Shown here piece after piece: positions 1-30,901 of a stretch of DNA of 64,000 bases (positions are counted from its first letter, which is position 1; each line of letters begins with the position of its first letter). This DNA is from Thermoplasmata archaeon (GTDB lineage Archaea > Thermoplasmatota > Thermoplasmata > RBG-16-68-12 > JAGMCJ01). The stretch is taken from positions 2,361-66,360 of the forward strand of contig JBHIFJ010000005.1 in NCBI GenBank assembly GCA_046761045.1. Reading direction: 5' to 3'. Below the pieces are notes generated by a model. The model ran no database searches. It saw only the letters and a program-made list of their open reading frames with translations, and was not told the origin of the DNA. The translations under genes and the position numbers were made by a program.

Positions 1-2958
1 GAGCTCGTTGACTCGAAGCCAAACTTCGGCTCCGCTGATGTCGACAACCCCCTCGAAGGCGTTCTGGAGCTGACGCCGGAGGTGGGTTTCTGGACAGTCG
101 AGGTCAAGGGAACGAACGTTCCCGCAGGTCCTCAGCCCTTCGCGCTGACGATTCTAGGTGCGACCGACCCGGATTACGGACAGCTCTTCCTGGACAAGGC
201 GACATATGGAGACTCGGACACAATCAACATCAGAGTGGAGGACTTGGATGCCATCTCCCCGGTGGTGGTAAAGGTCACAAGCGACACCGAGACAGCCGCT
301 GAGAACGTCACCCTGCTCCAAATCGGTACCGGGGTGTTCGAGGGGACCATAGACACCGCATACGGCATCCCTACCCCGGATGGCGTCCTGCAAGTGAGTG
401 AGCGCGACGCCGTCACAGTCGAGTACGTGGACGTCACACCTCCAGAGAAGTCGGTCCTGAAGACGGCAGTCATAGACGGCGCGCCTCCCATGATAACGAA
501 CGTGAAGGCGACCACGATAACCAACGCAGCCGCGACGATAGTGTGGAACACAGATGAATCTGCCACGTCGACGGTCTACTACGGCACCAGTCCGGCGTTC
601 CTGAACGGCACGGCGGTCAAGCTCCCAGCGGGATACTTCGTCTCGCACTCAGTCGATCTCGTCGGCCTTTCGACCGGCGTGAAGTACTACTTCGACGTCG
701 AATCTACTGATAGGTTCGGACACACGACCCTGGACAATAACGCTGGGCAGCACTACAGCTTCGTCACGACGGAGAAAGCAGAGCTACTGCTCGTCATCGG
801 CGACGCTACGTTCCCGCCAGAAAGGGTCGAGAGATACAGGAACGCATTCGACATGTTCGGCTGGTCCTTCAATGAGTGGTACGTCGAGAGAAGCGGAATT
901 CCGAGCCTCTCGCTATTGCAGGGGTACAAGGTGGTCCTCTGGCAAACCGGCTTGGAGGAGTACCCGCCCTTCGAGCCCCAAGAGATGACACTCATAACGA
1001 ACTATCTCGATGAGGGAGGAAGACTGTTCATCTCTTCCCACGATGTTGCCTGGGCCTTCGCGGCGGATTCGGGCTCCGAATACGCGACTGTTCAAACGGG
1101 TCAGTGGGTGAACTCGACCCTGAAGGCGGACTGGGATGAGGATCCAAGAAGCTGGACGGATATGGAGGGTGAGATCGGAGATCCGATCAGTAACGAGTAC
1201 GTAGGCGTGAATCGGATACCCTACATCCCGCACAGAAACGGTGGCGCGGGAGATGAGGTGACAGGCCAGCAGTACGGGGGGGCGTCTTCGAGCGTGTGGA
1301 AGGACTACGGCGGTCCCTATGCAAACGGTGTCACAGTTGGTATCAAGTGGGTTTCCTCCGGCCCGAACGGAACGGCTGGGCCAGGCAACGTCTGGGGAGG
1401 CCAGCCTTCGAAGATCGTGGACTGCTTCTTCGAGATTACGGGCCTGAACTTCATCTCGGCCAATGACTGGGACAGAGGTTCAGTCATCAACAAGACAATC
1501 GTGTGGTTGATAGGCCACGACCATCCAGACGTGCAGGTCATCTCGCCCAACGGAGGCGAGGTCTTCAGCGGGAACACAATCCAGATCGATTGGAGTCGGA
1601 ATGTATACTCCACAGGAATAAACCAGCAAACACTCTACTACAGCCCCGATGACGGACAGTCGTGGACAAAGATATCTCCCGATCCAGCGCCTGGCGATAC
1701 CACATACACGTGGGACGTCACAACGCTCGAGAATGGAATCAACTACCGCGTCAAGGTCATGGTCCAGGACGACGGCAACCCGTATCCGATGCTCAACGGT
1801 TCCGACGTCTCGGATGGCACATTCACGATCCTGAAGCCTTCAGGGGACAATCAGGGGCCGGTGACGATTCCAGGAAGCATCGTCCCGGATCCGAATCCCG
1901 TTGACAGGTACACGAGCATGACCTTCACGGCAATGGTGGATGACACGAACTTCGGGAACTCGACAATCCAGGCTGCAGAGTTCTATATCGATGCTCCTGG
2001 AGCCCCCGGAGGCGGTACACCGATGAATCCCGTGGACGCGTTCGACAGCGCCACAGAGGGGGTCACCTGGACCGGATCCGCGGACTGGCCGCCTGGAACG
2101 CACTGCATCTACGTGCACGGACAGGATGCTGCGAACAACTGGGGACAATGGGAGTCTAGGTGCTTCCTGGTCCACGGCAAGGTGGTTGCAGCGCCTTCCG
2201 ACTTCATGGCGGAGCTGACCGGACTCAACCATGAGGATGTCACGCTGACATGGACCCTTTCGCCGGATGACCCGACGGATGTGTCCCATTACTCCATATA
2301 CTACGGAGCCGCCTATGATCCGACAGCGGCAAGCTACGCATTCCTCACGACCGTGCCGAATCAAACGAGCATGTACGTGCATGCCGGAGCTGGCCTTGGT
2401 GGCTCGCTCTACTACGCCATCTACAGCAACGGAACGGGCGGAGACACGACGATGGCCTCCCAGCAGGCAGGCAAGTTCGTGAGAACGCTCTCGGCGGGCA
2501 TACATCTCGTCTCGATACCGATTACACCGTCGAACGCCTCCGTCAACAAGATCTTCCAGACGCTGGAGTATGACAAGGTGTGGACCTACGATTCATCGGC
2601 GAATCAGTGGCAGACCCACATGGCGTTCAAGCCCTACGGCGGGGACCTCACGACCATCACGCTGGACAAGGGCTACTGGGTCGAGGTGACTCAGGCGAGC
2701 GACTTCATCGTCGCCGGCTGGGCGCAGACAGTCGTGCCCATCCAGCTGATGCAGCCCTGGACATTGGCGGGCTATCCTTCGCTGACAGGTTCCATGACCG
2801 TCGGAGAGCTCAAGATGCTCACGGGAGCGAGCAAGGTCGAAGGCTACACCGCCGCGGGACCCTACTTCCTGCAGGAACTTGCGGACTCGTACGTCCTGGC
2901 AGCCGGGGAGGCATACTGGATTGGGAACGCCAACCTCACCTGGCAGGTCTACATCTAA
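1..2958 (+). CDS. C-terminal ~985 aa of a large secreted subtilase-paralogue surface protein (5' end lies outside the window). It carries FN3-like domains, a putative class-I glutamine-amidotransferase-like/ThuA-like domain, a BNR-like segment, and the C-terminal module shared with the proteins at 3000..6665 and 20324..22492.
   Basis: The reading frame is open from nt 1. The N-terminal part (ELVDSKPNFGSADVDNPLEGV...WTVEVKGTNVPAGPQPFALTILG) aligns with residues ~720-760 of the subtilase at 3000..6665 (NVLEGVHIKNPAVGAWTVEVIAHDVPNGPQPYALVALG). The C-terminal ~250 aa (TLTWTLSPDDP...YSIYYG...AKFVRTLSAG...WTYDSSANQW...GYWVEV...AYWIGNANLTWQVYI) is collinear with the C-termini of the two other secreted proteins. 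Confidence 0.7.
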   Translation, partial: ELVDSKPNFGSADVDNPLEGVLELTPEVGFWTVEVKGTNVPAGPQPFALTILGATDPDYGQLFLDKATYGDSDTINIRVEDLDAISPVVVKVTSDTETAAENVTLLQIGTGVFEGTIDTAYGIPTPDGVLQVSERDAVTVEYVDVTPPEKSVLKTAVIDGAPPMITNVKATTITNAAATIVWNTDESATSTVYYGTSPAFLNGTAVKLPAGYFVSHSVDLVGLSTGVKYYFDVESTDRFGHTTLDNNAGQHYSFVTTEKAELLLVIGDATFPPERVERYRNAFDMFGWSFNEWYVERSGIPSLSLLQGYKVVLWQTGLEEYPPFEPQEMTLITNYLDEGGRLFISSHDVAWAFAADSGSEYATVQTGQWVNSTLKADWDEDPRSWTDMEGEIGDPISNEYVGVNRIPYIPHRNGGAGDEVTGQQYGGASSSVWKDYGGPYANGVTVGIKWVSSGPNGTAGPGNVWGGQPSKIVDCFFEITGLNFISANDWDRGSVINKTIVWLIGHDHPDVQVISPNGGEVFSGNTIQIDWSRNVYSTGINQQTLYYSPDDGQSWTKISPDPAPGDTTYTWDVTTLENGINYRVKVMVQDDGNPYPMLNGSDVSDGTFTILKPSGDNQGPVTIPGSIVPDPNPVDRYTSMTFTAMVDDTNFGNSTIQAAEFYIDAPGAPGGGTPMNPVDAFDSATEGVTWTGSADWPPGTHCIYVHGQDAANNWGQWESRCFLVHGKVVAAPSDFMAELTGLNHEDVTLTWTLSPDDPTDVSHYSIYYGAAYDPTAASYAFLTTVPNQTSMYVHAGAGLGGSLYYAIYSNGTGGDTTMASQQAGKFVRTLSAGIHLVSIPITPSNASVNKIFQTLEYDKVWTYDSSANQWQTHMAFKPYGGDLTTITLDKGYWVEVTQASDFIVAGWAQTVVPIQLMQPWTLAGYPSLTGSMTVGELKMLTGASKVEGYTAAGPYFLQELADSYVLAAGEAYWIGNANLTWQVYI

Positions 2959-2999: not shown

Positions 3000-5900
3000 A
3001 TGACGAAAGGCAGACTCGCGATACTGCTATCCCTGATTCTCCTCCTTACACTGATTCCCATGAACACCAGCTCGACCCAGGGGGATATAATCGACGTCAG
3101 AATATCCATCTCCCCGGAGCAGCTGGACGCTCTCGCATCGTACCACATAATAGAGGAGTACGAGAGCTTCGTCGTGGTCAGTATAACGAGCGACGAGGTC
3201 GAGGAACTTACCGCCCGGGGCTTCGACGTTGAGGTGGAGGACCTCCACAGGATAGGCATCAGGGGATTCTCCTTCGATTCGAGGGACGGAGAGCCGCCCA
3301 TCCCGGAGGAACTCAGGACATCGGGCTATCCTTCTGGGGATGGCTACTACATCGTGCAGTTCCACGGACCCGTGAAGGAGGAATGGAAGACCTCCCTGCA
3401 ACGGGCTGGCGCCGAGATTCTCTCCTACGTGCCTTCGAACGCCTTCCTGGTCAGAACGAGGACGGGGATCTCCTCCCTCAGTGAGGTTCAGGCGGTGCAA
3501 TGGGTGGGACTCTTCCAACCCGCCTACAAGATCGCCCCGGAGCTCGCTTCCTCGAGCGGGACGTTCGAGGCAGAGATAATCACCTTCCGTCCGGAGGGTG
3601 TCAACTCGGTGGTCAATGCCCTTCCGCAGGCGTCCGTGCTCTACTCCTACAGGGGCAAGGACTTCGGCAGAGTGGATGCCAGACTGAATCGGGACCAGCT
3701 CGTGAAGGTGGCGAACCTGGTCGATGTCCACTTCATACAGGAGCGTCAGGTTCCTCAGGTCCTCAACAGCAGGATGCAATGGATAATGCAGACGAACGTC
3801 AATGGCAACAGGCGCGTGTGGGACATGGGAATCCGCGGTGAGGGACAGCTCGTCGGGTTCTCCGACACCGGCTTGGATTACGACCATCAGTTCTTCCGCG
3901 AGGACGCTGGGACGATACAGAGCGGGGATATCTACAACGTGACCGACATGACCCGCAGGAAGCTGGTGCGCTACTGGGTGCACGGCGACCCGACCGATGA
4001 GTGGTCCTGGAAGGATAGCCCGAACAGATACGACCCGGGCGCCGGATGGGCGACCCTTGGCCACGGGACAATGGTGGCGGGCACCTTTGGAGGCAATGAC
4101 GATCCTATGGGGTCCAGCGACAACGACGGAGGGGCGAAAGCCGCCAAGATATTCTTCCAGGATATAGGCAGCGTGGACATGCGGGGCGGCGTAAGGAGGG
4201 ACAGCCTAAAGTACATTCCATCTGACTACGACAACCTCTTCGGCCCCGCCTACGACGCCGGCGCGAGGGTCCATTCCAATTCCTGGGGCTCCTCGACGAG
4301 CGTATACACGTTCGAGGCGCAGATGGTCGACGAGTTTATGTGGAACCACCCTGACATGCTCATCGTATTCTCAAACGGGAACGGAGGCCCAACCTCGTGG
4401 TTCCAGTACGACGTCGCGAGCCCCGCCACGGCGAAGAACGCCCTGTCGTCGGGTTCGGGACAGACCTCTCCGAATCAGGACAGCGTTGCTGGATACAGCA
4501 GCAGAGGGCCCACCTCCGACGGAAGGCGGAAGCCCACCGTGACGGCCGTCGGTGAGGGCGTGTCGTCCATGTCCACTGGCGATCCGAAGGATAACACAAA
4601 CACCGCCTGGGAGAGCAGTTGGGCGGGCACGAGCTACTCGGCACCGGACCATGCTTCGCTGGCTGCCATGGCCCGCCAGTACTTCACAGAGGGGTGGTGG
4701 CCCACGGGGACGAAGATTCCCGGCGATGCGTTCAATCCCTCAGCGGCGCTCCTGAAGGCGGTCCTGGCCGCGAGCGGACAACAGATGACCGGCTCATTCT
4801 CGGACAGCAAGAGCGAGGACACCTGGCCGAACAACTCGCAGGGCTGGGGTAGAGTGCTCCTGGACGACGCATTGCACTTCACCGGCGACACGAGGCGCAT
4901 GGAGCTCGTGGACGAGACGCTTGGGCTGAGCACGGGCGAATCGAACATCGAATCCTACTTCGTTCTCGACTCCGGCGAGCCGCTGAGAGTGATGCTCGCC
5001 TGGACCGACCATCCCGGCGTGGCCTGGACGACCCCGAACCTGGTCAACGACCTGGACCTGCTTGTCACCGACCCGACTGGGAACACCTACAAGGGCAACG
5101 TCTTCGGGACGATGGCTCAGGGCGAGTCTCAGCCGAACACGGGCAGCTACGACAGGCTCAATGTGCTCGAGGGTGTTCACATAAAGAACCCTGCTGTCGG
5201 TGCGTGGACCGTTGAGGTCATCGCTCACGACGTGCCCAACGGACCGCAGCCGTACGCGCTCGTGGCACTCGGGGACCTCGGAACGGGCTACGGGCAGGTC
5301 TTCCTCGACCAGACGGTCTACGGGGACGGCGACACAATCGGGATAACGGTTAGGGACACTGGTCCTACGTCTATCAACGTCACCATATGGAGCACGACGG
5401 AGCCTGGTCCCGAGGTCGTTAGCCTGACCGAGACGTCACCTGGCTCGGGAAGATGGGTTGGCAACATCAACACCACTCTCGGTTTCCCGAGTCCTGATGG
5501 CCAGCTTCAGGTGTCCGATGGCGATCTCGTCACCGTTCAGTACGACGACATGAATCCCATCCACACATCCACAGACACGGCCACGATTGACGGCTCCTAT
5601 CCGATCATCTTCAACATCTTCGTGATCAATGTCACCTCCACCACGGCGGACGTGATTTGGAGCACGAACGAGCCCACTGATTCGAGGGTGTACTACAACA
5701 AGAGCGACCCGCTCATCCTGCAGGAGTTCGTGGGCGCGTATCGCACACAGCACGATGTCCTGCTTACGGGCCTCGAGCCGCAGACGACATACAGGTTCGA
5801 CGTGGAGTCCTCGGACCCGTACGGCCATACCGTCGTGGAAAACAATGGCGGGATGCATTACGAGTTCACCACGCTGAAGCCGATGCCCGAGCCTCCGACG

Positions 5901-6665
5901 AATCTGAGGGCCTGGCTCTTCGGGAACAACTATGAGCACGTCCACATAGAATGGGACCTGTCCACCGATGATGCGACAATGGTGGACCACTACGCGGTGT
6001 ATTACAGCACGACCGGCTACGACCCGGACGGGACGGGGTACAAGTTCCTGGCGGCCTCGCCGAAGGGAATCAACTTCTTCGACCACTATCTGGCGGGGCA
6101 TCTGAATCCGTGGAACATCTTCTACTACGTGCAGGCGAACTACAGCGGCGGTCTGCCCGGAAGGGCGGAGGACCAGGTCGCCAAGTTCACCAGGTGGATG
6201 CCGACCGGCAATGTCCTCCTGTCCTTCCCGCTCAAGATGGTCAACCAGACGATAGAGTACGCGCTCAAGACGGTGAGCTGGGACAGGGCGTGGACCTATG
6301 ATGCGTGGACGGGGCGCTGGATGGAGTACCACATCTGGAAGAATTGGAACGACCTCCTGACGGTGGATCAATCAATGGCGATCTGGGTGAACGTGACATC
6401 GCCCGAACCCGTGACTCACGCGGGTGTGGTGCCGAAGAACTTCACAATCTATCTCAAGGAGGGATGGAACCTCGTCGGGTTCCCCTACGTGCGGTGGGAC
6501 TACACGGTCGACGACCTCGCGACGGAGACGGGTGCCGAGCGGGTGGAGAGCTTCAATGTCGTTGCGCAGCCCTACTACCTGTGGGACCTTCCCGGGCCGA
6601 CATTCATGGCTCCTTGCGAAGGGTACTGGATAAAGGTTCCCGCTGATACTGTTTGGGTGCTCTGA
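3000..6665 (+). CDS. Secreted subtilisin-like serine protease (peptidase S8) with C-terminal FN3-like domains and the shared C-terminal module.
   Basis: N-terminal signal peptide MTKGRLAILLSLILLLTLIPMNTSS. S8 catalytic triad motifs are present: Asp (GFSDTGLDYDHQ), His (HGTMVAGT) and Ser (GTSYSAPDHA). A ctattatag TATA-like box lies 28-36 nt upstream of the ATG. Confidence 0.85.
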   Translation: MTKGRLAILLSLILLLTLIPMNTSSTQGDIIDVRISISPEQLDALASYHIIEEYESFVVVSITSDEVEELTARGFDVEVEDLHRIGIRGFSFDSRDGEPPIPEELRTSGYPSGDGYYIVQFHGPVKEEWKTSLQRAGAEILSYVPSNAFLVRTRTGISSLSEVQAVQWVGLFQPAYKIAPELASSSGTFEAEIITFRPEGVNSVVNALPQASVLYSYRGKDFGRVDARLNRDQLVKVANLVDVHFIQERQVPQVLNSRMQWIMQTNVNGNRRVWDMGIRGEGQLVGFSDTGLDYDHQFFREDAGTIQSGDIYNVTDMTRRKLVRYWVHGDPTDEWSWKDSPNRYDPGAGWATLGHGTMVAGTFGGNDDPMGSSDNDGGAKAAKIFFQDIGSVDMRGGVRRDSLKYIPSDYDNLFGPAYDAGARVHSNSWGSSTSVYTFEAQMVDEFMWNHPDMLIVFSNGNGGPTSWFQYDVASPATAKNALSSGSGQTSPNQDSVAGYSSRGPTSDGRRKPTVTAVGEGVSSMSTGDPKDNTNTAWESSWAGTSYSAPDHASLAAMARQYFTEGWWPTGTKIPGDAFNPSAALLKAVLAASGQQMTGSFSDSKSEDTWPNNSQGWGRVLLDDALHFTGDTRRMELVDETLGLSTGESNIESYFVLDSGEPLRVMLAWTDHPGVAWTTPNLVNDLDLLVTDPTGNTYKGNVFGTMAQGESQPNTGSYDRLNVLEGVHIKNPAVGAWTVEVIAHDVPNGPQPYALVALGDLGTGYGQVFLDQTVYGDGDTIGITVRDTGPTSINVTIWSTTEPGPEVVSLTETSPGSGRWVGNINTTLGFPSPDGQLQVSDGDLVTVQYDDMNPIHTSTDTATIDGSYPIIFNIFVINVTSTTADVIWSTNEPTDSRVYYNKSDPLILQEFVGAYRTQHDVLLTGLEPQTTYRFDVESSDPYGHTVVENNGGMHYEFTTLKPMPEPPTNLRAWLFGNNYEHVHIEWDLSTDDATMVDHYAVYYSTTGYDPDGTGYKFLAASPKGINFFDHYLAGHLNPWNIFYYVQANYSGGLPGRAEDQVAKFTRWMPTGNVLLSFPLKMVNQTIEYALKTVSWDRAWTYDAWTGRWMEYHIWKNWNDLLTVDQSMAIWVNVTSPEPVTHAGVVPKNFTIYLKEGWNLVGFPYVRWDYTVDDLATETGAERVESFNVVAQPYYLWDLPGPTFMAPCEGYWIKVPADTVWVL

Positions 6666-6708: not shown

Positions 6709-8529
6709 TTACAGAACGCCAAACAGGAACGAGGAGGCCAGGAAGGACAGGGAAAAGATGAGGGTTGCCATAGGAATGGCCCTCCCGATTGCTCTCATGA
6801 GTTCCGGACGGTCACCGCCCTGTAGCCCTTCAACGAGATAACTGGCCACCGCCGAATTGCAGAAGAGGAGGCCTCCAAGTATGAGGATGAACGAACTGAG
6901 ATTGGAGGACTGAGAGAACCTTTCCATCAGCAGCGACATCGAAGCAGTCACTCCGAGAACAAGTGGAGAGAAGAAGGTCGTGGTGTTGCGCAATGTCTGA
7001 ATGGTCGGCCTGATTTCGTCTCGTGCATTCTCCTCAATCCTCGACACCTCCTTCAGATTGGAGGAGATGTGCTTCGCTATCCTCCCTGCAAGAGCAGGGT
7101 CCTTCTCGGCAATACTGAATATCATCCTCAGATTCGAGGTGACACCCGTCCCTGTGGGCGCTAGACTGTCAACCAGTGCTGTCCCCACATCGGACTTGCC
7201 CCTTGACAAGTGATATAGAGCCTGAGCGAACTTACCCGACAGCTCCGTTCCCTCCATCTTTCTCCCGGTCTTCAAGAGAGCGGTCTCAGGAGGCTCGCCT
7301 GCCAAGAGGAATCTGCCCAGGTGCTCAGCCGCTTCGGGGAATTCCCTCGCGAGTTTGGACGAGTCACCGCCGTGTCTAGACCTTCCCGCCCAAAGCATGG
7401 AGAATGATATCAGGAGCGAGGAGAAGGCGAGAATCGCGAGGAATGCATATGGGGTTTCGATGTGCCATATCACGACGACGGCCACGAGAAGGGAAATGGT
7501 AGCGAGAAGGGCCAGAACTGGCGGGAGTACATCTGAGAGCTCCAACGGCCGGGCGGTCCTCGAGGGAATGGGCCTTCCGGACAGCACCTCCCTGCAATAG
7601 AGGAGCATGAATAGCGGGAAGGCGACGTCTAGGATGACTGCTACCAGGCCGGGATGGAGACCGTTGGCTTGGCGCCCTTCGATGTTCTCGTCAGCAAGCC
7701 CAATCGGACTCGCGAGAGCCAAGGATGACATCGGCAGAAAGGAGGCGATCATCACTGGGAGCACTATCCCAAGCGCGAAGACGACACTGATGGGTGCCTT
7801 GAGGGAGAAAAGGAATCGCCGAAGCTTTCTCCTTGTGTGAGCGTGAATGGCCGAAAGCAAGAAGCCCAGATCATCCCCGGAACTCTCCTCCACGGCTCCA
7901 GACAGGCTCAACATTGCCTCCCCAAATCCCCTGTTCCTGTCTTTCCATTTCCTGGCATAGCTCACGAATTCCTCTGGCAGGCTCCTGCCTTTCAGATAGA
8001 CAAGCCACAGTAGCCGCTCAAACCCAACCTTGACTTCACCACGAGAGTTCCTGGAGACGGCCAAGACCGCATTCTCGTGTGAAAGCGCTTCTCCAGCGCC
8101 TCCTATCATGTGGCTCATGACCTCGGGGGCCTCTCTGAAGGATGATTTCTGCATCGCTACGGCAAGTCCTCTTGGAAAGGAGACGACCGTCCTACTGAGA
8201 ATGAAGGCGAGCGTGACCACGAGAACGAGGACAATTGGATGAGCTTGAGCCAGGACGAGAGCAGGAAGGAGGACCAGAGAGAGCATGAATGCCAAACGTC
8301 CGCCCGATAGGACCTCCTCGGACCGCAGCCCGAGTCCAGCAAAGAGGATGTCATCTTCGAGTTCCATTCTGTCAGCCTCCATCATCCGCCGTAGCCTGCT
8401 TCTCGGGTCCTCAGTGGGTCTCTCGGATCGTGGCCAAATCGGTCCTATGCACCTCCTACAACGCAGGGGTCCCAGCATGGAATGAGCGAATCTGCAGTAC
8501 CTCGTGAACATCTCACCTCGACTAGGCAT
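6709..8529 (-). CDS. FlaJ/TadC-like polytopic membrane platform protein of a type IV pilus / archaellum-type assembly system.
   Basis: 606 aa with many hydrophobic segments and T2SS-F-like architecture. It lies immediately downstream of the FlaI-like ATPase, with an 8-nt overlap typical of flaI-flaJ operons. Confidence 0.7.
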   Translation of the reverse strand: MPSRGEMFTRYCRFAHSMLGPLRCRRCIGPIWPRSERPTEDPRSRLRRMMEADRMELEDDILFAGLGLRSEEVLSGGRLAFMLSLVLLPALVLAQAHPIVLVLVVTLAFILSRTVVSFPRGLAVAMQKSSFREAPEVMSHMIGGAGEALSHENAVLAVSRNSRGEVKVGFERLLWLVYLKGRSLPEEFVSYARKWKDRNRGFGEAMLSLSGAVEESSGDDLGFLLSAIHAHTRRKLRRFLFSLKAPISVVFALGIVLPVMIASFLPMSSLALASPIGLADENIEGRQANGLHPGLVAVILDVAFPLFMLLYCREVLSGRPIPSRTARPLELSDVLPPVLALLATISLLVAVVVIWHIETPYAFLAILAFSSLLISFSMLWAGRSRHGGDSSKLAREFPEAAEHLGRFLLAGEPPETALLKTGRKMEGTELSGKFAQALYHLSRGKSDVGTALVDSLAPTGTGVTSNLRMIFSIAEKDPALAGRIAKHISSNLKEVSRIEENARDEIRPTIQTLRNTTTFFSPLVLGVTASMSLLMERFSQSSNLSSFILILGGLLFCNSAVASYLVEGLQGGDRPELMRAIGRAIPMATLIFSLSFLASSFLFGVL

Positions 8530-10153
8530 ATCCTGCCCTCACGTCAATCTGTCTTTTCCATCGTTCCAGCAGGTCCTCGCCAGAGTAGCCCTTCTCTGTG
8601 AGTGACAAGAAAACGGAGTTGGCTAGCGATTGGAACTTCGCTGAGAGGACGCGACTCCCCAGTTTCCTTGCGAGACTGGCCACGTACCTCTTGCATTCCG
8701 CCCTCAAGTGGATACTCTCAAGGGCCTCCGCGTAACTCATTCCCCAGGAGTTCGCAATCTCCCGTATCCTTTGTGAGTCAGAGAGGAGGCTCTCGGTTTC
8801 GATGAGCGAGTCTCTCGAGATGCTGTAGTGCATGAGCTGCAGGAAGCTACCATCGCAGGACTCCTTGTTGAGCTCAGAGATCTCGATTACTCTTCGTCTA
8901 GGATTCAGGGTCCCTCGAGGCCTCAGAAGTCCGGCCACGATGACGATGTCAGTCGCTGAGAAGGACTGAGGAGGGATGCCGAGATCGTGGACCACCCGCT
9001 CATAAACACTTCTGGAGGAGCTCCCGTGTATCGTCCCGAGAACCGCCGAGCCAGCCGTCCCGACACGCATCGCCTCGTAAAGAGTCCGAGCCTCTCTGCC
9101 TCTCACCTCTCCGAGGACTATTGCAGACTCTCCGAGGCGCAACGAGACCCTGAGCGCTTCATCTGCCGTCGTTTCGCTCCCGGAGATTCCTGAGCATACG
9201 TAGAGGCTCTGGACCTTGTATCCGAGTTTCCTGAGCTCCGCGCAGGGCAACTCCAGCGTGTCCTCAATCGTCAGAATTCTCTGGCTTGTCGGGAATTCGA
9301 ACATCATAGCCCCGAGGAGCGATGACTTCCCCGCCCCGCGACTGCCCGTCACCAGGATTGTTGAGTTACCATCCATCAGGAAAGAGATGAGGCCGGCCGC
9401 AAGAGGTGTCATACTTCTGTGATAGACCAATCTCGTCAGGGTCCACGGGTCAGACGAGTGTCTGCGCAAGGCAAGAGCGATGCCATCCGGACTGAGTGGG
9501 GGACGCACGGCTGTCAGTCTTGCGTTCATGTCTCCCAAGTCCATCTCAAGAACGGGATTCCTCTCCGAAAACGGCCTCTTGCTCATGAGGAGGAGTTTCG
9601 AGACTATGTTCTTGAGACCTCCCTCATCCATGCGAATGTTGGAAACGCACTTCTGGTGAAATCTGTGCTCTCCGGCGTGTGCAACCGTGAGGTGTATGGG
9701 GACCATCTCGCATGGTGCATCTAAGAAGATGTCCTGGACGTTTGGGTCCGAGAGAAGAATCTCGAGGACTCCGAATCCCACGGAATTCCTCTCAATCATC
9801 TCAGCAAGATGGCGTGCCCTCATCATACGCTCGGCCTTTGCCATGGTTCTGGGCAGACGAAGGGCTATGAGGTCACTCGCCCGATTCTTCACGTAGCGCC
9901 TGACCTGCGAAAGATTCCCCAGATCGAGGATATCAGGCGGGATAGACCATATCTCCTCCACGACCTCCCAGAGAAGCGAGAGCTCGTCTTCCTTCACCTC
10001 GGATGAGGGTGGTGAAAGCCAGTACAGGAAGTCGGTCGAGTTGTCCATCTGATAGATGCTTATGCGTGATTCACCGACGGAGTAGCTCATGACGGCTTCA
10101 AGGTCAGGAGGGTCGCCTAGTATCCAAAAGGAGCTGAAGAAGGGTCTCCACAT
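8522..10153 (-). CDS. FlaI/TadA/VirB11-family secretion ATPase (type IV pilus or archaellum assembly ATPase).
   Basis: Walker A box ILVTGSRGAGKSSLLGAMM followed by an Asp box (RILTIEDTLEL). The size of 543 aa is typical of archaeal FlaI. Confidence 0.85.
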   Translation of the reverse strand: MWRPFFSSFWILGDPPDLEAVMSYSVGESRISIYQMDNSTDFLYWLSPPSSEVKEDELSLLWEVVEEIWSIPPDILDLGNLSQVRRYVKNRASDLIALRLPRTMAKAERMMRARHLAEMIERNSVGFGVLEILLSDPNVQDIFLDAPCEMVPIHLTVAHAGEHRFHQKCVSNIRMDEGGLKNIVSKLLLMSKRPFSERNPVLEMDLGDMNARLTAVRPPLSPDGIALALRRHSSDPWTLTRLVYHRSMTPLAAGLISFLMDGNSTILVTGSRGAGKSSLLGAMMFEFPTSQRILTIEDTLELPCAELRKLGYKVQSLYVCSGISGSETTADEALRVSLRLGESAIVLGEVRGREARTLYEAMRVGTAGSAVLGTIHGSSSRSVYERVVHDLGIPPQSFSATDIVIVAGLLRPRGTLNPRRRVIEISELNKESCDGSFLQLMHYSISRDSLIETESLLSDSQRIREIANSWGMSYAEALESIHLRAECKRYVASLARKLGSRVLSAKFQSLANSVFLSLTEKGYSGEDLLERWKRQIDVRAGYA

Positions 10154-10284
10154 CTGGTCGTTGGAGAGTAGCTTTCCGATGGAGCGCTGAATGACACTCG
10201 TATCTATCCTTCGGAGCTTGAGAGCTGCACGAACATAGGGGTCCTGAGCTCGGGCCTGTCTCTTCGATGTCCTTGCAGGCGATC

Positions 10285-11031
10285 CTATTCCTCCACTATT
10301 CTGAGGCCGTCTCTGAGCGAAGATCTTCTAAGAGCCAACGCTTCGTCGAAAAGGACCAAAACGTCCCTCTTTGTCTGGAAAAGGCAGATCTCGCACTTCT
10401 GGCTCAGATTATCAGGTGCGGATTCCAGAATGCATCTCAGGGATGAGAAGAACTCCGTGAGGTCTCTCAGGAACGCAGTCTGAATCTCGACGAAGAGCTT
10501 CCCTGGTTCATACTGACATCGACGACACCTCTTCCTTTCCTTTCTCGACTTCTCCTGGCGAATCCGCTGGAGCGATTCGGCCTTCACTGCCGAGATAGTG
10601 TCCAGAGTCCTCCTCATCTGGGAAAGTAGGCTCACGCTCACGACTGAGTATCTCTTGACGATTGTGCCTGAGAGTGTCATTTGCTCCACCCTGAGTTTGC
10701 CATCGAGAGAAAGAAGCGCACCCGTGAGGCATTTCTGCCTCCTCAGATCCGGCTGAGCATCGCAACCGATACAGTCGACTTCGATCAGGTTCCTTTCCTT
10801 CACATATCTGGATTCGCAGGAGCCCACACCCGCATCCCTCCGCATCGAATATGCAACTTCAGTGAGAGTTAAAAACCTTCTTGGCAAGATATTTAGCCAG
10901 TCGTCCGTTATTATTGGTATGTGGAGGGACGATAGAGCAATTTCGGGCATTCTGGAGGAGCTGATAGCGCTCGCGGTCGTTTCGATCGCCATCTGCCTCC
11001 TGCTAGTGAGCATATCGAGCACGGTCGCCAC
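10285..11031 (-). CDS. Hypothetical Cys-rich protein upstream of the FlaI-like gene. The start codon is uncertain.
   Basis: 248 aa ORF with CIGCD...C and CRRCQYEPGKLF...CEIC motifs suggesting zinc binding. It has no Walker A box, so it is not a FlaH homologue. Its 5' end overlaps the divergent pilin-like ORF at 10862..11368, so one of the two starts must be internal. Confidence 0.4.
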   Translation of the reverse strand: MATVLDMLTSRRQMAIETTASAISSSRMPEIALSSLHIPIITDDWLNILPRRFLTLTEVAYSMRRDAGVGSCESRYVKERNLIEVDCIGCDAQPDLRRQKCLTGALLSLDGKLRVEQMTLSGTIVKRYSVVSVSLLSQMRRTLDTISAVKAESLQRIRQEKSRKERKRCRRCQYEPGKLFVEIQTAFLRDLTEFFSSLRCILESAPDNLSQKCEICLFQTKRDVLVLFDEALALRRSSLRDGLRIVEE

Positions 11032-11368
11032 GCAAATCGAGCATCAGAGGACCATTGAGATGAGAGCAGAGGTCACAAAGCTTCTGAGACGAGTTGTGTC
11101 TCATCCTCGCCTCACCAGGGAGGGAGAGCATCTTCTGCTGGATTGGATCGTCCTCAGAAACGCCTCGGCGGATTTGCTTGGGGGAATCCTGAGGACCCGT
11201 CACGGCTTCAGAGTGCTCATCCAGGACGTGACCAATTCCTCAAACCATGTCATAGGAACCTCTGTTCCGGTTGGGGACCTCATGAGCGCGACCACTAGCT
11301 GCAACATATGGGTCGGTCCGGGGGACATTCACGCTGCCCGCTTGACACTCGTCATCTGGGAGGGATGA
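10862..11368 (+). CDS. Pilin-like protein with a candidate class III (prepilin-type) signal peptide. The true start is probably the internal Met.
   Basis: N-terminus ...MWRDDRAISG/ILEELIALAVVSIAICLLLV has a short charged leader, G at -1, acidic residues shortly after the site, and then a ~20 aa hydrophobic helix. It is paralogous to the next ORF (shared ...VTNSS... region and C-terminal LVIWEG/LVLWRT). Confidence 0.4.
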   Translation: MRVKNLLGKIFSQSSVIIGMWRDDRAISGILEELIALAVVSIAICLLLVSISSTVATQIEHQRTIEMRAEVTKLLRRVVSHPRLTREGEHLLLDWIVLRNASADLLGGILRTRHGFRVLIQDVTNSSNHVIGTSVPVGDLMSATTSCNIWVGPGDIHAARLTLVIWEG

Positions 11369-11369
11369 G

Positions 11370-11891
11370 ATGAATCGCAGGGCCCAACTGGCAATCACAG
11401 ATGCAATCATCTTCCTCCTTCTCATCAGTCTCAGTCTTGGGATTTCCCTGGTGAGCTCCTCTGACGGCCCAGGGTCAGCTGAGCTGTTCTCCATGGCAGA
11501 CGAGAAGGACTATGCCGAGGAAACATTCATCGTTCTCCTGAGGAGCACGCTGGACCTCCAAGACTGTGGAATGAACCACTCCAGACTGTCCGTTGACAAA
11601 TACATACTCCTGAGAACCGCCCTGGAGGACAGCAATGAGGACGTCGAGCCACTGGCTGCATGCGATGATGTCATAATTCGATTCGCGAGGGATCTGATAC
11701 TCGATAGATACGAGTTCCGTCTGACCTCGAACTACGTGAACTCGAGTACTGGATTCGTCACGGAGATTCTGCTATCCGAGCCTGAAAGGGTTGTACCAAC
11801 AGAGTACATTCAGATATCCTGGAACTTCACGATGATCTGCTTCGGCAAGCCGGGTGATGCCATCATGTCGCTTGTCCTTTGGAGGACGTAA
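11370..11891 (+). CDS. Pilin-like protein with a candidate class III signal peptide.
   Basis: MNRRAQ/LAITDAIIFLLLISLSLGISLV has a short basic leader, an acidic residue at about +5/+6, and a hydrophobic helix followed by a ~130 aa globular part. It sits adjacent (1 nt gap) to its paralogue. Confidence 0.45.
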   Translation: MNRRAQLAITDAIIFLLLISLSLGISLVSSSDGPGSAELFSMADEKDYAEETFIVLLRSTLDLQDCGMNHSRLSVDKYILLRTALEDSNEDVEPLAACDDVIIRFARDLILDRYEFRLTSNYVNSSTGFVTEILLSEPERVVPTEYIQISWNFTMICFGKPGDAIMSLVLWRT

Positions 11892-11944
11892 GGCAGAATG
11901 GGCTTCGGCGAGGAGGCAAGCCGGCAGAATCCTCCGCAAGGGTT

Positions 11945-12427
11945 CTAGGTCTGCCATTCCACCATTCCAACGACGTTTCCGGTGTCCCTCCAGATCATGC
12001 TGATGGAGTAGAATCTCGAAGGGCTGCACTCGACCTGGAAGTAGTCACCAGTGCTCACCCTGCGATCTCCATCCAGATCCACGAATGCAAAAGGCGCTGA
12101 AGGGTCTTCGGTGATCGGGTCCATCGCCTCAAGTACAGAACCGTTCTCGAAAAGCATCGCCTTGAAGTCGTGCAGGCGCTCCGCTCTGGAGGCCCCCGCC
12201 ACGGTCATCTTCCATTTGGTGCTGCTCACTTGCTCTGGACTTGAGAACTGTACGTCAAGGTAACCGTCGATTATCACGTCGTCCCGATGACTCGAGAAGA
12301 GCGCGACCACGATGAGAACCACGACCGCCATGGTTACGGCGATTGCCATCACACCGAGGATGAGATACCTGTCCTCGCGGAGCCTTGGCCGCCCAGGCAC
12401 CTGCCCCAGACACAGGATGGTTCGCAT
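11945..12427 (-). CDS. Single-pass membrane protein, paralogue A, possibly a FlaF/FlaG-like pilus or archaellum accessory protein.
   Basis: Likely start MRTILCLGQVP. One TM helix (LILGVMAIAVTMAVVVLIVVALF) precedes a ~110 aa domain that ends in VEWQT. It is 35-40% identical to the next ORF. Confidence 0.5.
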   Translation of the reverse strand: MRTILCLGQVPGRPRLREDRYLILGVMAIAVTMAVVVLIVVALFSSHRDDVIIDGYLDVQFSSPEQVSSTKWKMTVAGASRAERLHDFKAMLFENGSVLEAMDPITEDPSAPFAFVDLDGDRRVSTGDYFQVECSPSRFYSISMIWRDTGNVVGMVEWQT

Positions 12428-12446
12428 CAGACCTCCGTCCATCATA

Positions 12447-12935
12447 CTAAGTCTCCCACTCGACTCGTCCCCTTTCGCTCGCCGAATCCCTCCAAACGAT
12501 GCTCAGCCTGTAACCGCTCGAGTGAGGACACGTGATCGTGAAGAAGTCTCCCGTGGTGAGACTGCCGGCTCCATCCAAGTCTGTGAATGTCAGATAGGTG
12601 GAATGCTGTTCGGAAAGGGGGTTGATGTCGTCCACAACGGTACCGTTCTCCAGCAGCAGGACCATGAAGTTGTCGAGTCTCTTGACCTCGGATACGCCTG
12701 CAACCTTGACCTCCCATTGATTCCCGCCCAAGTCCTGAGGACCCGTCAGCTGCACGGTCGGCTCAGATTTGTGGTCGACAATCATGCCCCTGGGCAGAAT
12801 GAGGACAGCGAGCACAAGCAGGGAGACGAACGCCATCACGATCGCTATGGCCAACACGGCAATGAACAGCTGCCAGTCCTCCCGAGGTCTTGGCGGTTCC
12901 GGTGGCACCTGCCCCAGACACAGAATCGTTCGCAA
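12447..12935 (-). CDS. Single-pass membrane protein, paralogue B.
   Basis: It has the same N-terminus MRTILCLGQVP, a TM helix, a conserved core (VAG.S...RL..F..LL.ENG.V......P.......F.DLDG......GD.F.I.C.....Y..SI.WRD), and the C-terminus VEWET. Confidence 0.5.
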   Translation of the reverse strand: MRTILCLGQVPPEPPRPREDWQLFIAVLAIAIVMAFVSLLVLAVLILPRGMIVDHKSEPTVQLTGPQDLGGNQWEVKVAGVSEVKRLDNFMVLLLENGTVVDDINPLSEQHSTYLTFTDLDGAGSLTTGDFFTITCPHSSGYRLSIVWRDSASERGRVEWET

Positions 12936-13213
12936 CAGAGTATCCCTCCTCGTGACTTCAGCGATTCACCATGGAGGTGGCGCAATATAACGATTTTCAT
13001 CAGAGTGGCACTTTCACCCACCTCCCGCTCGCAGCCTTATAGCCTCCGGCCGCGTAGTAGGAGAAGGTGATAGCATGGAGGTTCTCGACGAGAAGAGCAC
13101 GACATCCAACCCCTCGTGCCAGTGCAGAGAAGTTTGTCCCGACTGCTCCTCCCCGCTCATGTTCTCGGGGAACTGCGGGTACTGCCCAAGCTGCGGCTTT
13201 TCCAAATGTGGCT

Positions 13214-13225
13214 AACAATAAATAG
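13214..13225 (+). promoter_or_regulatory. Candidate TATA box upstream of the mcm gene.
   Basis: The sequence aacaataaatag lies ~40 nt upstream of the GTG start at 13262. Confidence 0.3.
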
Positions 13226-13261
13226 GGAGGTGGCGATACCCTTCCGAAGGGGGAGGCCGTC

Positions 13262-15361
13262 GTGATACGATACACCGATGAGGAGCTTCTATCGAAGTGG
13301 GAAGAGTTCTTCGAGCAGTACGGTTACGAGTCCAAGATAACCGCCGTCGCTGATGTCTTTCCCGAGAAGAGGAGCCTGGAGGTCAGGTTCGAGGATATAG
13401 ACAGATACGATACGGACTTCGCCATGCACTTTCTCAGGAAGCCCGCCAGGACCATTTCGGCGGGCGAGGAGGCGATCTCAAAGGCGGTTCCGCCAACAGC
13501 CGAGGATGTCTCGATCCACATGAGGGTCAAGGGCCTTCCGCGGGATCATAGAATCACCATACGGGACCTGAGGAGCAAGCACGTCGGGCGGTTCGTCGCC
13601 GTCGAGGGTCTCGTGCGAAAGGCAACGGAAGTCCGGCCCATGATAATCGAGGCGACCTTCGAGTGCAGGAGGTGCGGGCACAGGTTCACCGCATTGCAGG
13701 AAGGTATGGCCTTTCGCGAGCCGCTGGAGTGTCCGAAGGACTCAGGCGGTTGTGGCAAGAGCGCCAGTTCAACGCGGTTCGAACTTCTCCTCGATGAGTC
13801 AAAGTTCATGGACACGCAGAAGATAGAAGTTCAGGAGAAGCCGGAGATAATCAGGGGCGGCGCGCAGCCCGAGAGGCTGACCGCCTACTGCGTGGATGAC
13901 ATAGCCGGCATCATCTCACCCGGGGACAGGATAGTCCTCAACGGCGAGCTCAAGAGCGTCCAGAGGACGAGGTATCGCGCCAAGTCCACCGTCTTCGACA
14001 TCTTCATCGACGCCAACAGCGTCGAGTCGGAGCAGATGGAGTTCGAAGAAATCGAGGTCACCGCCGAGGACATAGATGCGATCAGGGCGGCCGCGGCGGA
14101 CGAGAGGATTCTCGAGAACATCGTCTCCTCGATTTCCCCCGTCTTGTACGGCCTGCGGACGGAGAAGGAAGCGCTCGTGCTCCAGCTCTTTGGCGGCGTC
14201 CCGAAGGAGATGCCTGACGGCACGAGGATAAGGGGAGACATTCACATCCTTCTCGTCGGCGATCCCGGAACCGGGAAAAGCCAGCTGCTCACCTACATGA
14301 GCCAGCTCTCTCCGCGGTCCGTCTACACGGCTGGAAAGGCATCGTCCGCGGCTGGATTGACCGCGGCGGCAGTCCGTGACGAGTTCGGCGAGGGTCGCTG
14401 GACCCTTGAGGCTGGCGCGATGGTCCTGGGAGACGGCGGACTCGTGTGCATCGACGAGATAGAGAAGATGAACCCGCAGGACAGGGACGCCATCCACCTT
14501 GGGATGGAGCAGCAGTTCATCTCCATCTCGAAGGCAGGGATAACCGCCACGCTTCCGTCGCGATGCGCCGTCCTAGCAGCCGCCAATCCGCGGTTCGGCA
14601 GGTTCGACGAGCACAAGTTCATTTCGGAGCAGATCGAGCTCTCCCCGACGCTGCTCTCAAGGTTCGACGTCATCTTCTCGATACTCGACATCCCGGAGTC
14701 AAGAAGGGACATGGACATGGCCGACCACATGCTCAAGGGTCACCTCGTGGGCGAGCTCAAGAAGAAGAGGATGGATGACCGCATTGCTGCCGAAATACCC
14801 GATGTGGAGGTCTTCGAGCCGCACTTCGAGCCCGAGTTCCTTAGGAAATACGTATCCTACGCGAGGCAGGTGAATCCCGTCCTCACGCCAGAGGCGATGG
14901 AGGTCATAAAGGCGAAGTACCTCGAGATACGAAAGCAGGGCGAGGTGGAGGGTGCGGCGGTTCCCATCACACCGAGGCAGCTGGAGGCCTTCGTAAGGCT
15001 GTCGGAGGCGAGCGCGAGAGCGCGATTGAGCGATTCCGTCTCCGAGGACGACGCTCAGCGGGCGGTGCGGATCGTCGAGTACTGGCTACGCAAGGTCGCT
15101 GGTGAGGCGGGAAGGTTCGACATAGACATAATCGTGACGGGGACGAGCACATCGCAGAGGGAGCAGATGATAGCGCTCCGGGACATAATCCAGGAGCTCG
15201 CGGGAGAAGAGGGCAGCGCCGACATATCGGACATCAAGTCCGTCGCAGAGGAAAGGGGCATTCACTCCAGTCGTGTCGAGTCCCTGCTCAAGCGATGGAG
15301 TCAAGAGGGGGAAGTCTATTCTCCGTCCAAGAACAAGTACAAGCTCGTCGGACGGCGATAG
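13262..15361 (+). CDS. mcm: MCM replicative helicase.
   Basis: C4 zinc finger (CRRCGH...CPKDSGGCG). AAA+ Walker A ILLVGDPGTGKSQLL, Walker B DEIEKM and arginine-finger SRFD are present. The length is 699 aa. Confidence 0.9.
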   Translation: MIRYTDEELLSKWEEFFEQYGYESKITAVADVFPEKRSLEVRFEDIDRYDTDFAMHFLRKPARTISAGEEAISKAVPPTAEDVSIHMRVKGLPRDHRITIRDLRSKHVGRFVAVEGLVRKATEVRPMIIEATFECRRCGHRFTALQEGMAFREPLECPKDSGGCGKSASSTRFELLLDESKFMDTQKIEVQEKPEIIRGGAQPERLTAYCVDDIAGIISPGDRIVLNGELKSVQRTRYRAKSTVFDIFIDANSVESEQMEFEEIEVTAEDIDAIRAAAADERILENIVSSISPVLYGLRTEKEALVLQLFGGVPKEMPDGTRIRGDIHILLVGDPGTGKSQLLTYMSQLSPRSVYTAGKASSAAGLTAAAVRDEFGEGRWTLEAGAMVLGDGGLVCIDEIEKMNPQDRDAIHLGMEQQFISISKAGITATLPSRCAVLAAANPRFGRFDEHKFISEQIELSPTLLSRFDVIFSILDIPESRRDMDMADHMLKGHLVGELKKKRMDDRIAAEIPDVEVFEPHFEPEFLRKYVSYARQVNPVLTPEAMEVIKAKYLEIRKQGEVEGAAVPITPRQLEAFVRLSEASARARLSDSVSEDDAQRAVRIVEYWLRKVAGEAGRFDIDIIVTGTSTSQREQMIALRDIIQELAGEEGSADISDIKSVAEERGIHSSRVESLLKRWSQEGEVYSPSKNKYKLVGRR

Positions 15362-17579: not shown

Positions 17580-18175
17580 CGGAGAAGAGATTGACTGTCC
17601 CGCTGAGCGAGGAGGACGTGCGCGCTCTGGATGTCGGCGACATCGTCTACCTCGACGGCATCGTACACACGGGCAGGGACGAGGTGCACATGCGCGCACT
17701 GGAGCACGCAAGGGAGGGCAAGGAGATTCCCGTCGACTTCAAGGACGGTGTCATCTTCCACTGTGGACCGATAATGAAGAAGCATGGAGACAAGTGGATA
17801 ACCGTCGCGGCTGGTCCGACAACGAGTTCGAGGATGAATTCCCTCGAACCTGAGTTCATTGAGAAGTTCGGCGTGCGCGGCGTGATCGGCAAGGGCGGAA
17901 TGTCGGCTCCGACGATTGAGGCGATGCAGAAGTTCGGTGCCGTTTATTTCGCAATCACGGGCGGGGCGGCCGTGTCGATCGCAAAGGGGGTCGAGGAGGT
18001 CCTCGGAGTCAAGTGGCTCGAGCTGGGGATGCCCGAAGCGATCTGGATTCTCAAGGTCAAGAACTTCGGCCCACTCACCGTCGGGATCGACACGAAGGGC
18101 AACAGCCTTTTTGCGGACGTGGACTCGAAGGTGAAGGGGAACATCCCGAAGGTCAGGAAGAAGCTCGGGATTTAG
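17576..18175 (+). CDS. fumB: Class I fumarate hydratase, beta (C-terminal) subunit.
   Basis: GTG start overlaps the alpha stop by 4 nt. It carries the motif GKGGMSAPTIEAMQKFGAVYFAITGGAAV. Confidence 0.8.
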   Translation: MTEKRLTVPLSEEDVRALDVGDIVYLDGIVHTGRDEVHMRALEHAREGKEIPVDFKDGVIFHCGPIMKKHGDKWITVAAGPTTSSRMNSLEPEFIEKFGVRGVIGKGGMSAPTIEAMQKFGAVYFAITGGAAVSIAKGVEEVLGVKWLELGMPEAIWILKVKNFGPLTVGIDTKGNSLFADVDSKVKGNIPKVRKKLGI

Positions 18176-18273
18176 CCGCTCTCTCGGCTTCTGATTCCTA
18201 TCTGTCCTGGTGATAGGACTAGATATGTTGGCAGGATTGAGCTTGTGCAATCGGATTCCGATGTGGAAACAAG

Positions 18274-18384
18274 ATGAGGCAAATTGCAGAGGTGACTCGC
18301 CGAGGTCAGACAACGATTCCCGAGGAGTTCCGGCGGAAGCTCAGCATTCGCGAAGGAGACAATCTCCAGACGGATTTCGCGTGA
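18274..18384 (+). pseudogene. Fragment of an AbrB/MazE/VapB-type antitoxin (36 aa; truncated, with no toxin partner).
   Basis: MRQIAEVTRRGQTTIPEEFRRKLSIREGDNLQTDFA* matches the SpoVT-AbrB looped-hinge DNA-binding domain but stops after ~36 aa. It lies in a degraded region. Confidence 0.3.
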
Positions 18385-18555
18385 GTGTGTTCCCGAAGAC
18401 GCGACCGAACATGGGGAGAGTTACCACTAGTCTAGCTGGAATCTGACTTAGAACTGGGACGGCGAAAAAAGGATCACCAAAACCGCTCTAGGAGACTCCC
18501 CTATTCACAACTCGTGTGTGAAACTCTATTGTTATGTGGTTTCCAAAACGAGAAC

Positions 18556-18834: not shown

Positions 18835-18920
18835 TCTATTCCTCTTACGTCTCCCGTTCATTATAGTTCAGAAAACGTTTCGGGGGTATTAGTGCATCCA
18901 TAGCACTTAAGGTTTTGGTA

Positions 18921-30806: not shown

Positions 30807-30901
30807 CTAGTGACAAAGACCTCTCCGAAGAACTCCACCAAAGATTCATATCCCAAATGACCTATGGAAGATTGCTTAGCTAAGCATCCCTCCACAACAA
30901 T

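Follow-up and report, generated by a model that had tools for sequence, protein, structure and literature searches.

A five-gene locus for a probable non-archaellum type IV filament in a Thermoplasmata archaeon, with a separately encoded cysteine-rich ATPase domain

Gene content and layout of the locus

The window analysed here is a stretch of 64,000 nucleotides of a Thermoplasmata archaeon (contig JBHIFJ010000005.1, positions 2,361 to 66,360). It carries a locus (Table 1) that we think probably encodes a non-archaellum archaeal type IV filament (pilus) machine of the type catalogued as subclade 4F by Makarova and colleagues. The conserved unit comprises five genes in two back-to-back operons. 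One, on the minus strand, includes the genes for a cysteine-rich protein, a secretion ATPase and a platform protein; the other, on the plus strand, includes two pilin-like genes (p149 and p173). The one unusual feature of the locus is that the cysteine-rich N-terminal domain of the ATPase is present as a separate gene.

The window is archaeal, since it encodes MCM, NMD3 and RadB. Orthologues of the ATPase (75-80% identity) occur in six GTDB genomes, all of which are labelled as metagenome-assembled genomes (MAGs) of Thermoplasmata or Thermoplasmatota. Two public sequencing runs contain identical contigs.

An earlier reading of the bare sequence (the original prediction) had listed seven open reading frames (ORFs) and compared the five on the minus strand with the flaF-flaG-(flaH)-flaI-flaJ order of archaellum operons. 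All seven ORFs are present where they had been placed, with two starts revised (see below). The pilin-like genes had been described as convergent with the minus-strand genes. This is correct for the tandem pair (t166 and t162) alone; with respect to the cysteine-rich/ATPase/platform operon they are divergent. Because two opposite-strand genes split the tandem pair from this operon, the five minus-strand genes do not form a single uninterrupted block.

Pfam and NCBIfam scans were run on all seven locus proteins and on part of the remaining ORFs of the window. Among the seven, the ATPase alone passes a cut-off in either collection.

Table 1. Features of the locus, together with the KaiC-like gene found in related loci
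Feature	Coordinates	Strand	Basis or remark
Platform protein (TadC/FlaJ/PilC-type), 606 amino acids	6709..8529	-	Transmembrane layout, hhalign, Foldseek
FlaI/GspE/CpaF-superfamily ATPase, 543 amino acids	8522..10153	-	PF00437 and motifs
Cysteine-rich ATPase-associated module, 186 amino acids	10285..10845	-	Fusions in relatives, cysteine alignment, AlphaFold2 model
Divergent intergenic control region (putative), 73 nucleotides	10846..10918	.	Sequence read, block conservation
p149, pilin-like, 149 amino acids	10919..11368	+	Transmembrane helix, synteny, codon-position pattern
p173, pilin-like, 173 amino acids	11370..11891	+	Class III-type signal peptide
t166, tandem paralogue	11945..12445	-	41% identity to t162, one transmembrane helix
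t162, tandem paralogue	12447..12935	-	Same family as t166
KaiC-like gene of relatives	L009 20557-21267; L012 20742-21452; L014 20721-21431		Equivalent lies left of window position 1

The secretion ATPase

The 543-amino-acid protein is a secretion ATPase of the T2SSE/FlaI superfamily. It obtains 68.1 bits against T2SSE (PF00437; cut-off 24.9, E 7.5e-19), and its Walker A (9323-9346), Asp box (9248-9277), Walker B (9098-9127) and His box (9023-9040) motifs are intact. The FlaI/TadA-type assignment made in the original prediction therefore holds at the level of the superfamily. With the more specific NCBIfam models the scores (122 bits for the TadA family, 99 for FlaI and 62 for BasE) are all far under the cut-offs, so that the protein is not an equivalog of any named ATPase. 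For example, the FlaI model NF058587 gives 98.8 bits (E 3e-28) with a cut-off of 550.

The nearest solved structures in the PDB are those of afGspE, the GspE of Archaeoglobus (2.6e-26), CpaF (1e-25) and FlaI (2e-19). The ATPases of three related loci (numbered here L015, L017 and L018) are 43-50% identical to that of the window over their full length. In a search of 72,556 plasmid records, two Haloterrigena plasmid ATPases were 39-40% identical (E ~1e-56), that of pHTUR04 at 40% over the core, and the next plasmid matches were bacterial CpaF proteins with 27-31% identity.

The cysteine-rich protein

The gene immediately 5' of the ATPase gene occupies the position that flaH would have in an archaellum operon. 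It had been described as encoding a cysteine-rich protein of 248 amino acids without a Walker A box. The cysteine content is as described and a motif scan bears out the absence of a Walker A motif or P-loop, but the length corresponds to an over-extended frame, which overlaps the first plus-strand ORF by 170 nucleotides. The upstream part of this frame is broken in relatives (by a stop codon in L008 and by a change of frame in L004, L005 and L007), and the identical NCBI protein, a hypothetical protein of a Thermoplasmata archaeon, has the 186-amino-acid form. We have therefore placed the gene at 10285-10845, with its start at 10845 rather than at 11031.

Neither Pfam nor NCBIfam gave a match for this protein, Fe-S families included, and no transmembrane helix is predicted. 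A profile searched exhaustively against 1.84 billion representatives returned a family of 74, mostly of 170-215 amino acids. Five of these (749-834 amino acids) carry the cysteine-rich domain N-terminal to a T2SSE ATPase. The loci of two such fusions, L015 and L017, were recovered. In both, the fused ATPase aligns with that of the window from residue 3 of the latter to its end (43-44% identity), so that residue 3 marks the fusion junction, and the next gene in the 3' direction encodes a homologue of the window platform protein (E 1e-44 to 1e-51). Since the fusions are to orthologous ATPases, the cysteine-rich protein is, on the evidence of these sequences, the N-terminal domain of the ATPase itself, detached in the window and fused elsewhere.

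In an alignment of 31 sequences, two sets of four cysteines are conserved (C10, C25, C28 and C39; C107, C110, C151 and C154). P114 is conserved as well. The AlphaFold2 model (predicted local distance difference test, pLDDT, 89.6; predicted template modelling score 0.83) consists of a small beta-beta-alpha-beta-beta subdomain and, after it, a helical bundle. A Foldseek comparison of this model with the PDB gave no fold match at E<=1e-3. A word-index search for homologues returned close relatives alone, and a cluster look-up of the family members returned no informative names. Judged by their CxxC spacing and a cytoplasmic location, the eight cysteines probably form two metal sites, with zinc as the likeliest metal. 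An N-terminal extension of the Haloterrigena ATPase, with four cysteines, aligns with the N-terminal subdomain of the family (hhalign E 8e-4, probability 24%).

The platform protein

The start of the platform ORF overlaps the ATPase stop by 8 nucleotides. The 606-amino-acid product has approximately seven predicted transmembrane helices, which part two cytoplasmic helical domains. Its family is small (12 clusters; a word-index search returned close relatives only), and one of six members shows T2SSF in Pfam, weakly. NCBIfam gave no match at all, and sequence and profile searches of the PDB gave nothing significant.

Its nature is suggested by two other lines of evidence. First, tblastn against plasmids identified a 'secretion system protein' of Haloterrigena turkmenica pHTUR04, encoded directly 3' of a type II/IV secretion ATPase. 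Comparison of the window platform family with this protein by hhalign gave a probability of 98.4% (E 4e-15) over 509 columns; the pHTUR04 protein likewise has no Pfam match, so that an assignment through it is indirect. Second, the best Foldseek matches of the AlphaFold2 model in the PDB are all cytoplasmic domains of GspF, EpsF, OutF, PilC or SpoIIIAB (probability 1.00, target TM-score 0.64-0.70, with E of only 0.065-0.7). The two halves of the protein also show a faint internal repeat with a GspF-like 'LLAGE..E.AL' signature, which is suggestive (hhalign E 0.048). The FlaJ/TadC assignment of the original prediction thus falls under the Pfam cut-off, but is upheld by the profile-profile and fold evidence, and we accept the protein as a predicted platform of the GspF/PilC/TadC/FlaJ type encoded beside the ATPase.

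Residues 1-25 (8455-8529) are conserved in six homologues (MPxxGxxFTRxCRxAHxxLGPLRC, with C12, H16 and C24) and are followed by a variable linker. This conservation indicates that the start giving 606 amino acids is right. Gene callers shorten the protein to 552 amino acids, with loss of the conserved peptide. As a speculation, the cysteine-rich module could dock on this peptide or share metal with it.

The pilin-like pair and the intergenic region

The second revised start is that of p149, which begins at MWRDDRA (10919) and not at 10862. The homologue in L008 begins with MWRD, a motif that shows no variation, not even in the distant L018. The 57 nucleotides 5' of the revised start have no third-codon-position bias, while the part downstream has 49, 35 and 90 differences at the three codon positions, a pattern which identifies it as coding sequence. 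The protein includes a short charged leader, a hydrophobic helix with a conserved acidic residue (ISGILEEL...), which is its single predicted N-terminal transmembrane helix, a small globular domain and a C-terminal strand (...LVIWEG). Its identity is 51-58% across syntenic loci and 27% in L018.

Both genes had been credited with class III-like signal peptides. For p173 this is correct under the strict pattern: its N-terminus (MNRRA followed by QLAITDAIIFLLL) is of the class III type, is kept in all homologues, including those of L018 and L015, and makes p173 the sole non-spurious ORF of the window in which a hydrophobic stretch comes after a match to a FlaFind-like pattern. The N-terminus of p149 (MWRDDRA followed by ISGILEELIALAV) fits the relaxed pattern alone. 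The two proteins have similar C-termini, a hydrophobic strand with a tryptophan. Paralogy of the two, as originally proposed, could not be demonstrated (BLASTP E 1.4; hhalign E 0.065, collinear). A similar pair, with the same C-termini, lies 3' of the platform gene in L015 (hhalign E 4e-4 and 1.3e-3); within it, a 162-amino-acid protein weakly resembles p149, at the former value and with a shared C-terminal end. Neither p149 nor p173 is similar to the DUF7311 protein that adjoins the Haloterrigena ATPase.

The two operons are separated by a region (10846-10918) with a block of 55 nucleotides that is 84-96% identical across loci, compared with 66-70% for the adjacent coding DNA. It includes two opposed TATA-like boxes, GGTTTTTAA on the minus strand for the operon of the cysteine-rich gene and GATATTTAG on the plus strand for the pilin-like operon, each some 22-27 nucleotides from its own start codon. 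This spacing suggests leaderless transcripts and a site for a shared regulator, and we regard the region as a putative shared divergent promoter.

The tandem pair

The description of t166 and t162 as tandem, paralogous, single-transmembrane proteins is borne out (41% identity, E 3e-41, one transmembrane helix each). t166 crosses the membrane once and has a beta-rich ectodomain of ~110 amino acids with the motif F.D.DG...L..GD.F..C. The comparison with FlaF and FlaG is another matter. Neither protein has a FlaF/FlaG match, or any other significant match, in Pfam or NCBIfam. A profile of the family retrieved no FlaF/FlaG chain from the PDB, where its transmembrane helix weakly matches archaeal pilins. 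The pair is present at L004 and L012-L014 and absent at L003 (where MCM is directly adjacent), L008 (where a 746-amino-acid protein takes its place), L009-L011 and L018. We count it as a variable neighbour outside the core.

The proposed analogy with flaF-flaG-(flaH)-flaI-flaJ therefore fails at several points: the pair has no FlaF/FlaG similarity, is absent from syntenic relatives and is cut off by two opposite-strand genes, and the protein in the flaH position is an ATPase N-terminal domain.

Conservation and neighbouring genes

The same five-gene core is found in at least twelve syntenic loci of related MAGs. It is also found in the divergent L018, in which the ATPase is 50%, the cysteine-rich protein 27% and the pilin-like pair 27-29% identical to those of the window. 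Co-occurrence of the five genes is weaker in L015. In L015 (6016-7362) and L016, which represent the distant version with a fused ATPase, an inserted gene for a HerA/DUF87-type ATPase separates the pilin-like genes from that of the platform.

MCM, NMD3 and fumarase are equally syntenic in close relatives, so that adjacency among these genomes carries little functional weight. To the left of the platform gene, and convergent with it, are genes for two secreted S8 subtilases of giant size, which carry fn3-like domains (82-2958, plus strand, running off the left edge, and 3000-6665, plus strand). These have a common C-terminal region of ~260 amino acids, and their synteny extends to all close relatives. 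At the equivalent position L017 has three NosD/beta-helix giants and L015 a protein of >2249 amino acids.

Beyond the two S8 genes, ~9 kb off, relatives have a gene for a single-domain KaiC-like ATPase of 236 amino acids (PF06745, DUF7125; see Table 1). We considered it as a candidate FlaH and rejected it: it obtains 49 bits against an ArlH cut-off of 215, and generic archaeal KaiC models fit better. Its linkage is not kept in L015, L017 and L018.

On the other side of the locus, an uncalled mini-ORF for a zinc-ribbon protein of 46 amino acids (MEVLDEKSTTSNPSCQCREVCPDCSSPLMFSGNCGYCPSCGFSKCG; 13075-13215, plus strand) lies 47 nucleotides 5' of MCM on the same strand. It has 80-91% amino-acid identity in seven syntenic loci and is recognisable in L017 and L018. 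The antisense ORFs at this position (13000-13275, minus, and 12312-13070, plus) are probably spurious. The MCM of L018 (4076-6649) includes an intein (PF14890) and has 857 amino acids compared with 699 in the window.

Further along the window, the G+C content is ~50% at 18001-22000, which contains several short ORFs, and at 30001-34000, compared with 56-61% elsewhere; these regions may be islands or RNA genes. Additional large secreted proteins are encoded at 20324-22492, 29172-30806 and 56997-61898. Two are NosD/beta-helix proteins and one, of 1633 amino acids, has CARDB, TSP3 and fn3 domains and a C-terminal transmembrane helix. The genome appears to be rich in surface proteins and exo-proteins.

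Interpretation

In the type IV filament machine that we propose, the secretion ATPase, as a hexamer, would sit under a dimer of the polytopic platform protein, and ATP-driven movements would lift pilin subunits from the membrane into a surface filament. p149 and p173 would most likely act either as minor or priming pilins or as the subunits of the filament itself. Their processing would fall to a class III signal peptidase whose gene lies in another part of the genome. The cysteine-rich protein, as a separate polypeptide, probably binds two metal ions (most likely zinc) and probably docks on the N-terminus of the ATPase, placed between motor and platform to serve as an adaptor or a regulator. 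We take an adhesive pilus as the default function. The original prediction had offered a non-archaellum system of the type IV pilus kind as one of two alternatives. This is the one supported here, and no component specific to archaella was found.

Several observations weigh against this interpretation. No major pilin of a recognised family is present among the window ORFs scanned, which are a part of the total, and the polytopic membrane ORFs scanned include no prepilin peptidase (PibD, FlaK or EppA). The statement in the original prediction that archaellin and prepilin peptidase are lacking is thus borne out for these ORFs, rather than for all those in the window. p149 and p173 match no Pfam pilin family and, in profile searches of the PDB, no solved pilin, and p149 fails the strict class III motif. 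The platform protein obtains 19.5 bits against T2SSF (cut-off 25.2, E 1e-3), and its model is of low confidence (pLDDT 51.8), the C-terminal half being better. Homology between the cysteine-rich module and the N-terminal cysteine domain of 4F ATPases is suggested by one modest hhalign match. Finally, the assignment to class 4F is indirect, as it takes the ATPase of pHTUR04 to be the protein GI 284176147. The polytopic ORFs considered as possible prepilin peptidases proved to encode DUF998, MFS and zinc-ribbon membrane proteins.

The machine might, alternatively, build no long pilus and act as a pseudopilus or bindosome-like apparatus that displays, anchors or exports the adjacent giant proteins, in particular the two S8 proteases. 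We consider this unlikely, although it is the best of the alternatives. Very large secreted proteins flank the machinery in three divergent versions (the window type, L017 and L015), the two pilin-like proteins are small and unlike a major pilin, and use of type IV filament machinery in the manner of a bindosome is documented. However, in close relatives the proteases are convergent with the operon and no more syntenic than MCM, NMD3 and fumarase, so that their adjacency may be vertical synteny. The signal peptide of the 1221-amino-acid protease reads as an ordinary Sec-type one and was not flagged in the class III scan. In addition, genes for S-layer-like proteins or adhesins adjoin many ordinary pilus loci (PMC4858521).

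A more elaborate form of this idea, to which we would give rather long odds, is that the cysteine-rich module is a trans-acting metal or redox switch that gates the ATPase of a display or export apparatus for the neighbouring giant exo-enzymes. If true, a sediment archaeon that degrades proteins would possess a functional counterpart of the pseudopilus of type II secretion.

If the locus is, as we favour, a 4F-type filament machine, it extends a poorly characterised filament class into an uncultured Thermoplasmata lineage. The natural fission/fusion pair implies that the cysteine-rich domain folds as a separable unit and acts together with the ATPase, so that its metal content, binding partner and structure can be studied with the domain expressed on its own. 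Since the platform and the pilin-like proteins are highly divergent and go unrecognised by Pfam and NCBIfam, such loci may be under-counted in model-based censuses.

Comparison with known systems

By the terms of the original prediction, an exact match to a known pilus of the Aap or Ups type, with a complete fla operon elsewhere, would have counted against it. The resemblance that we find is loose rather than exact, and is to another catalogued class, 4F. In the survey of Makarova, Koonin & Albers (2016, PMC4858521), subclade 4F ATPases, which are also found in nanoarchaea, often have an N-terminal cysteine-rich domain. A typical 4F locus includes an ATPase (arCOG01818), a TadC (arCOG01814) and several small pilin families (PMC4858521), the pilin arCOGs being arCOG02981/04673/05165-05167 (PMC4858521 supplement). 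The supplementary ATPase tree has a clade of nanoarchaea, two Methanomassiliicoccales (Mx1201 and BRNA1, of the class Thermoplasmata) and halobacteria, which includes a Haloterrigena protein with a GI number in the plasmid range (PMC4858521). The nearest annotated relative, from Haloterrigena, together with this published tree, is our reason for filing the locus as 4F-like.

The window resembles 4F loci in that one long platform gene of the TadC type comes after the ATPase gene and small genes for pilin-like proteins lie alongside. It also resembles them in having large surface proteins nearby, as is often the case, and in a host that belongs to the class Thermoplasmata, which the clade includes together with halobacteria and nanoarchaea. 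The best annotated match of its ATPase and platform is the pHTUR04 pair. The extra cysteine-rich N-terminal domain of the 4F ATPases appears to have its counterpart here in trans, encoded upstream of the ATPase as a separate gene, which is a difference from 4F loci, as is the divergent transcription of a pilin-like pair that matches no known pilin family. For the cysteines of the 4F domain, Makarova and colleagues propose disulfides (PMC4858521), whereas the cytoplasmic location and CxxC...CxxC spacing in the window protein would favour metal binding. The more recent survey of Sivabalasarma & Albers (2026, bioRxiv 10.64898/2026.04.22.720090), which uses the name 'subsystem 4F', reports no evidence that the ATPase genes of archaeal type IV filament systems have undergone fission or fusion. 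The occurrence of both split and fused forms qualifies this statement.

The Aap pilus of Sulfolobus acidocaldarius (aapA, aapX-aapE-aapF, aapB) has the same five parts: two pilins (AapA and AapB, of arCOG03871/03872, to which p149 and p173 could correspond), ATPase, platform and an accessory gene immediately 5' of the ATPase gene, with the X-E-F order of saci_2316-2318. The accessory protein AapX is essential, cysteine- or metal-related and of no known function, and its family, arCOG07320, with an Fe-S-cluster domain, is reported from some Thermoplasmatales (bioRxiv 10.64898/2026.04.22.720090). The locus might therefore be read as an adhesive or twitching pilus of the Aap type, with the cysteine-rich protein as the counterpart of AapX, but we consider this quite improbable. 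AapX is membrane-anchored and resembles Fe-S oxidoreductases, with FAD-domain homologues, while the window protein, a domain detached from the ATPase, is soluble, has 186 amino acids and matches no Pfam or NCBIfam family, and its relatives are fused to the ATPase. Moreover, the nearest annotated relatives of the window ATPase are haloarchaeal and 4F-like, although the Aap proteins were compared by description only.

The archaellum has an ATPase and a platform of the same superfamilies, encoded by adjacent genes. A divergent archaellum variant, with the tandem pair as FlaF/FlaG-like stators and the cysteine-rich protein in place of FlaH, would draw on the superficially similar gene order, the E value with the FlaI model and the KaiC-like gene past the two protease genes of close relatives, but it is already largely refuted and we give it almost no credence: the ATPase falls far short of the ArlI/FlaI cut-off (99 bits against 550) and scores higher with the TadA-family model, the platform has no NCBIfam match, the tandem pair is absent from several syntenic relatives, the cysteine-rich protein is an ATPase N-terminal domain and does not have a RecA/KaiC fold, the distant KaiC-like protein is well under the ArlH cut-off, and 4F ATPases cluster apart from archaellum ATPases in a structure-based tree (bioRxiv 10.64898/2026.04.22.720090). 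In the Pfam and NCBIfam scans, read to E<=1 for small proteins, none of ArlB (archaellin), ArlF, ArlG, ArlH, ArlCDE or ArlX (the FlaF/G, FlaC/D/E and FlaX signals included) was found among the locus proteins.

The 4F-type machine that we favour can also be compared with the bacterial Tad/Flp pilus. It differs from the latter in its archaeal host, in having one fused platform gene instead of TadB and TadC, and in the absence of a Flp-type mini-pilin, TadZ, a secretin or a Pfam TadE match at E<=1. There are, however, two likenesses. The window ATPase scores best with the TadA-family model and is close to the CpaF structures (1e-25). In addition, the pilin-like N-termini (LAITDAIIFLL and ILEELIALAV), as read by eye, recall the N-terminal motif of TadE and TadF.

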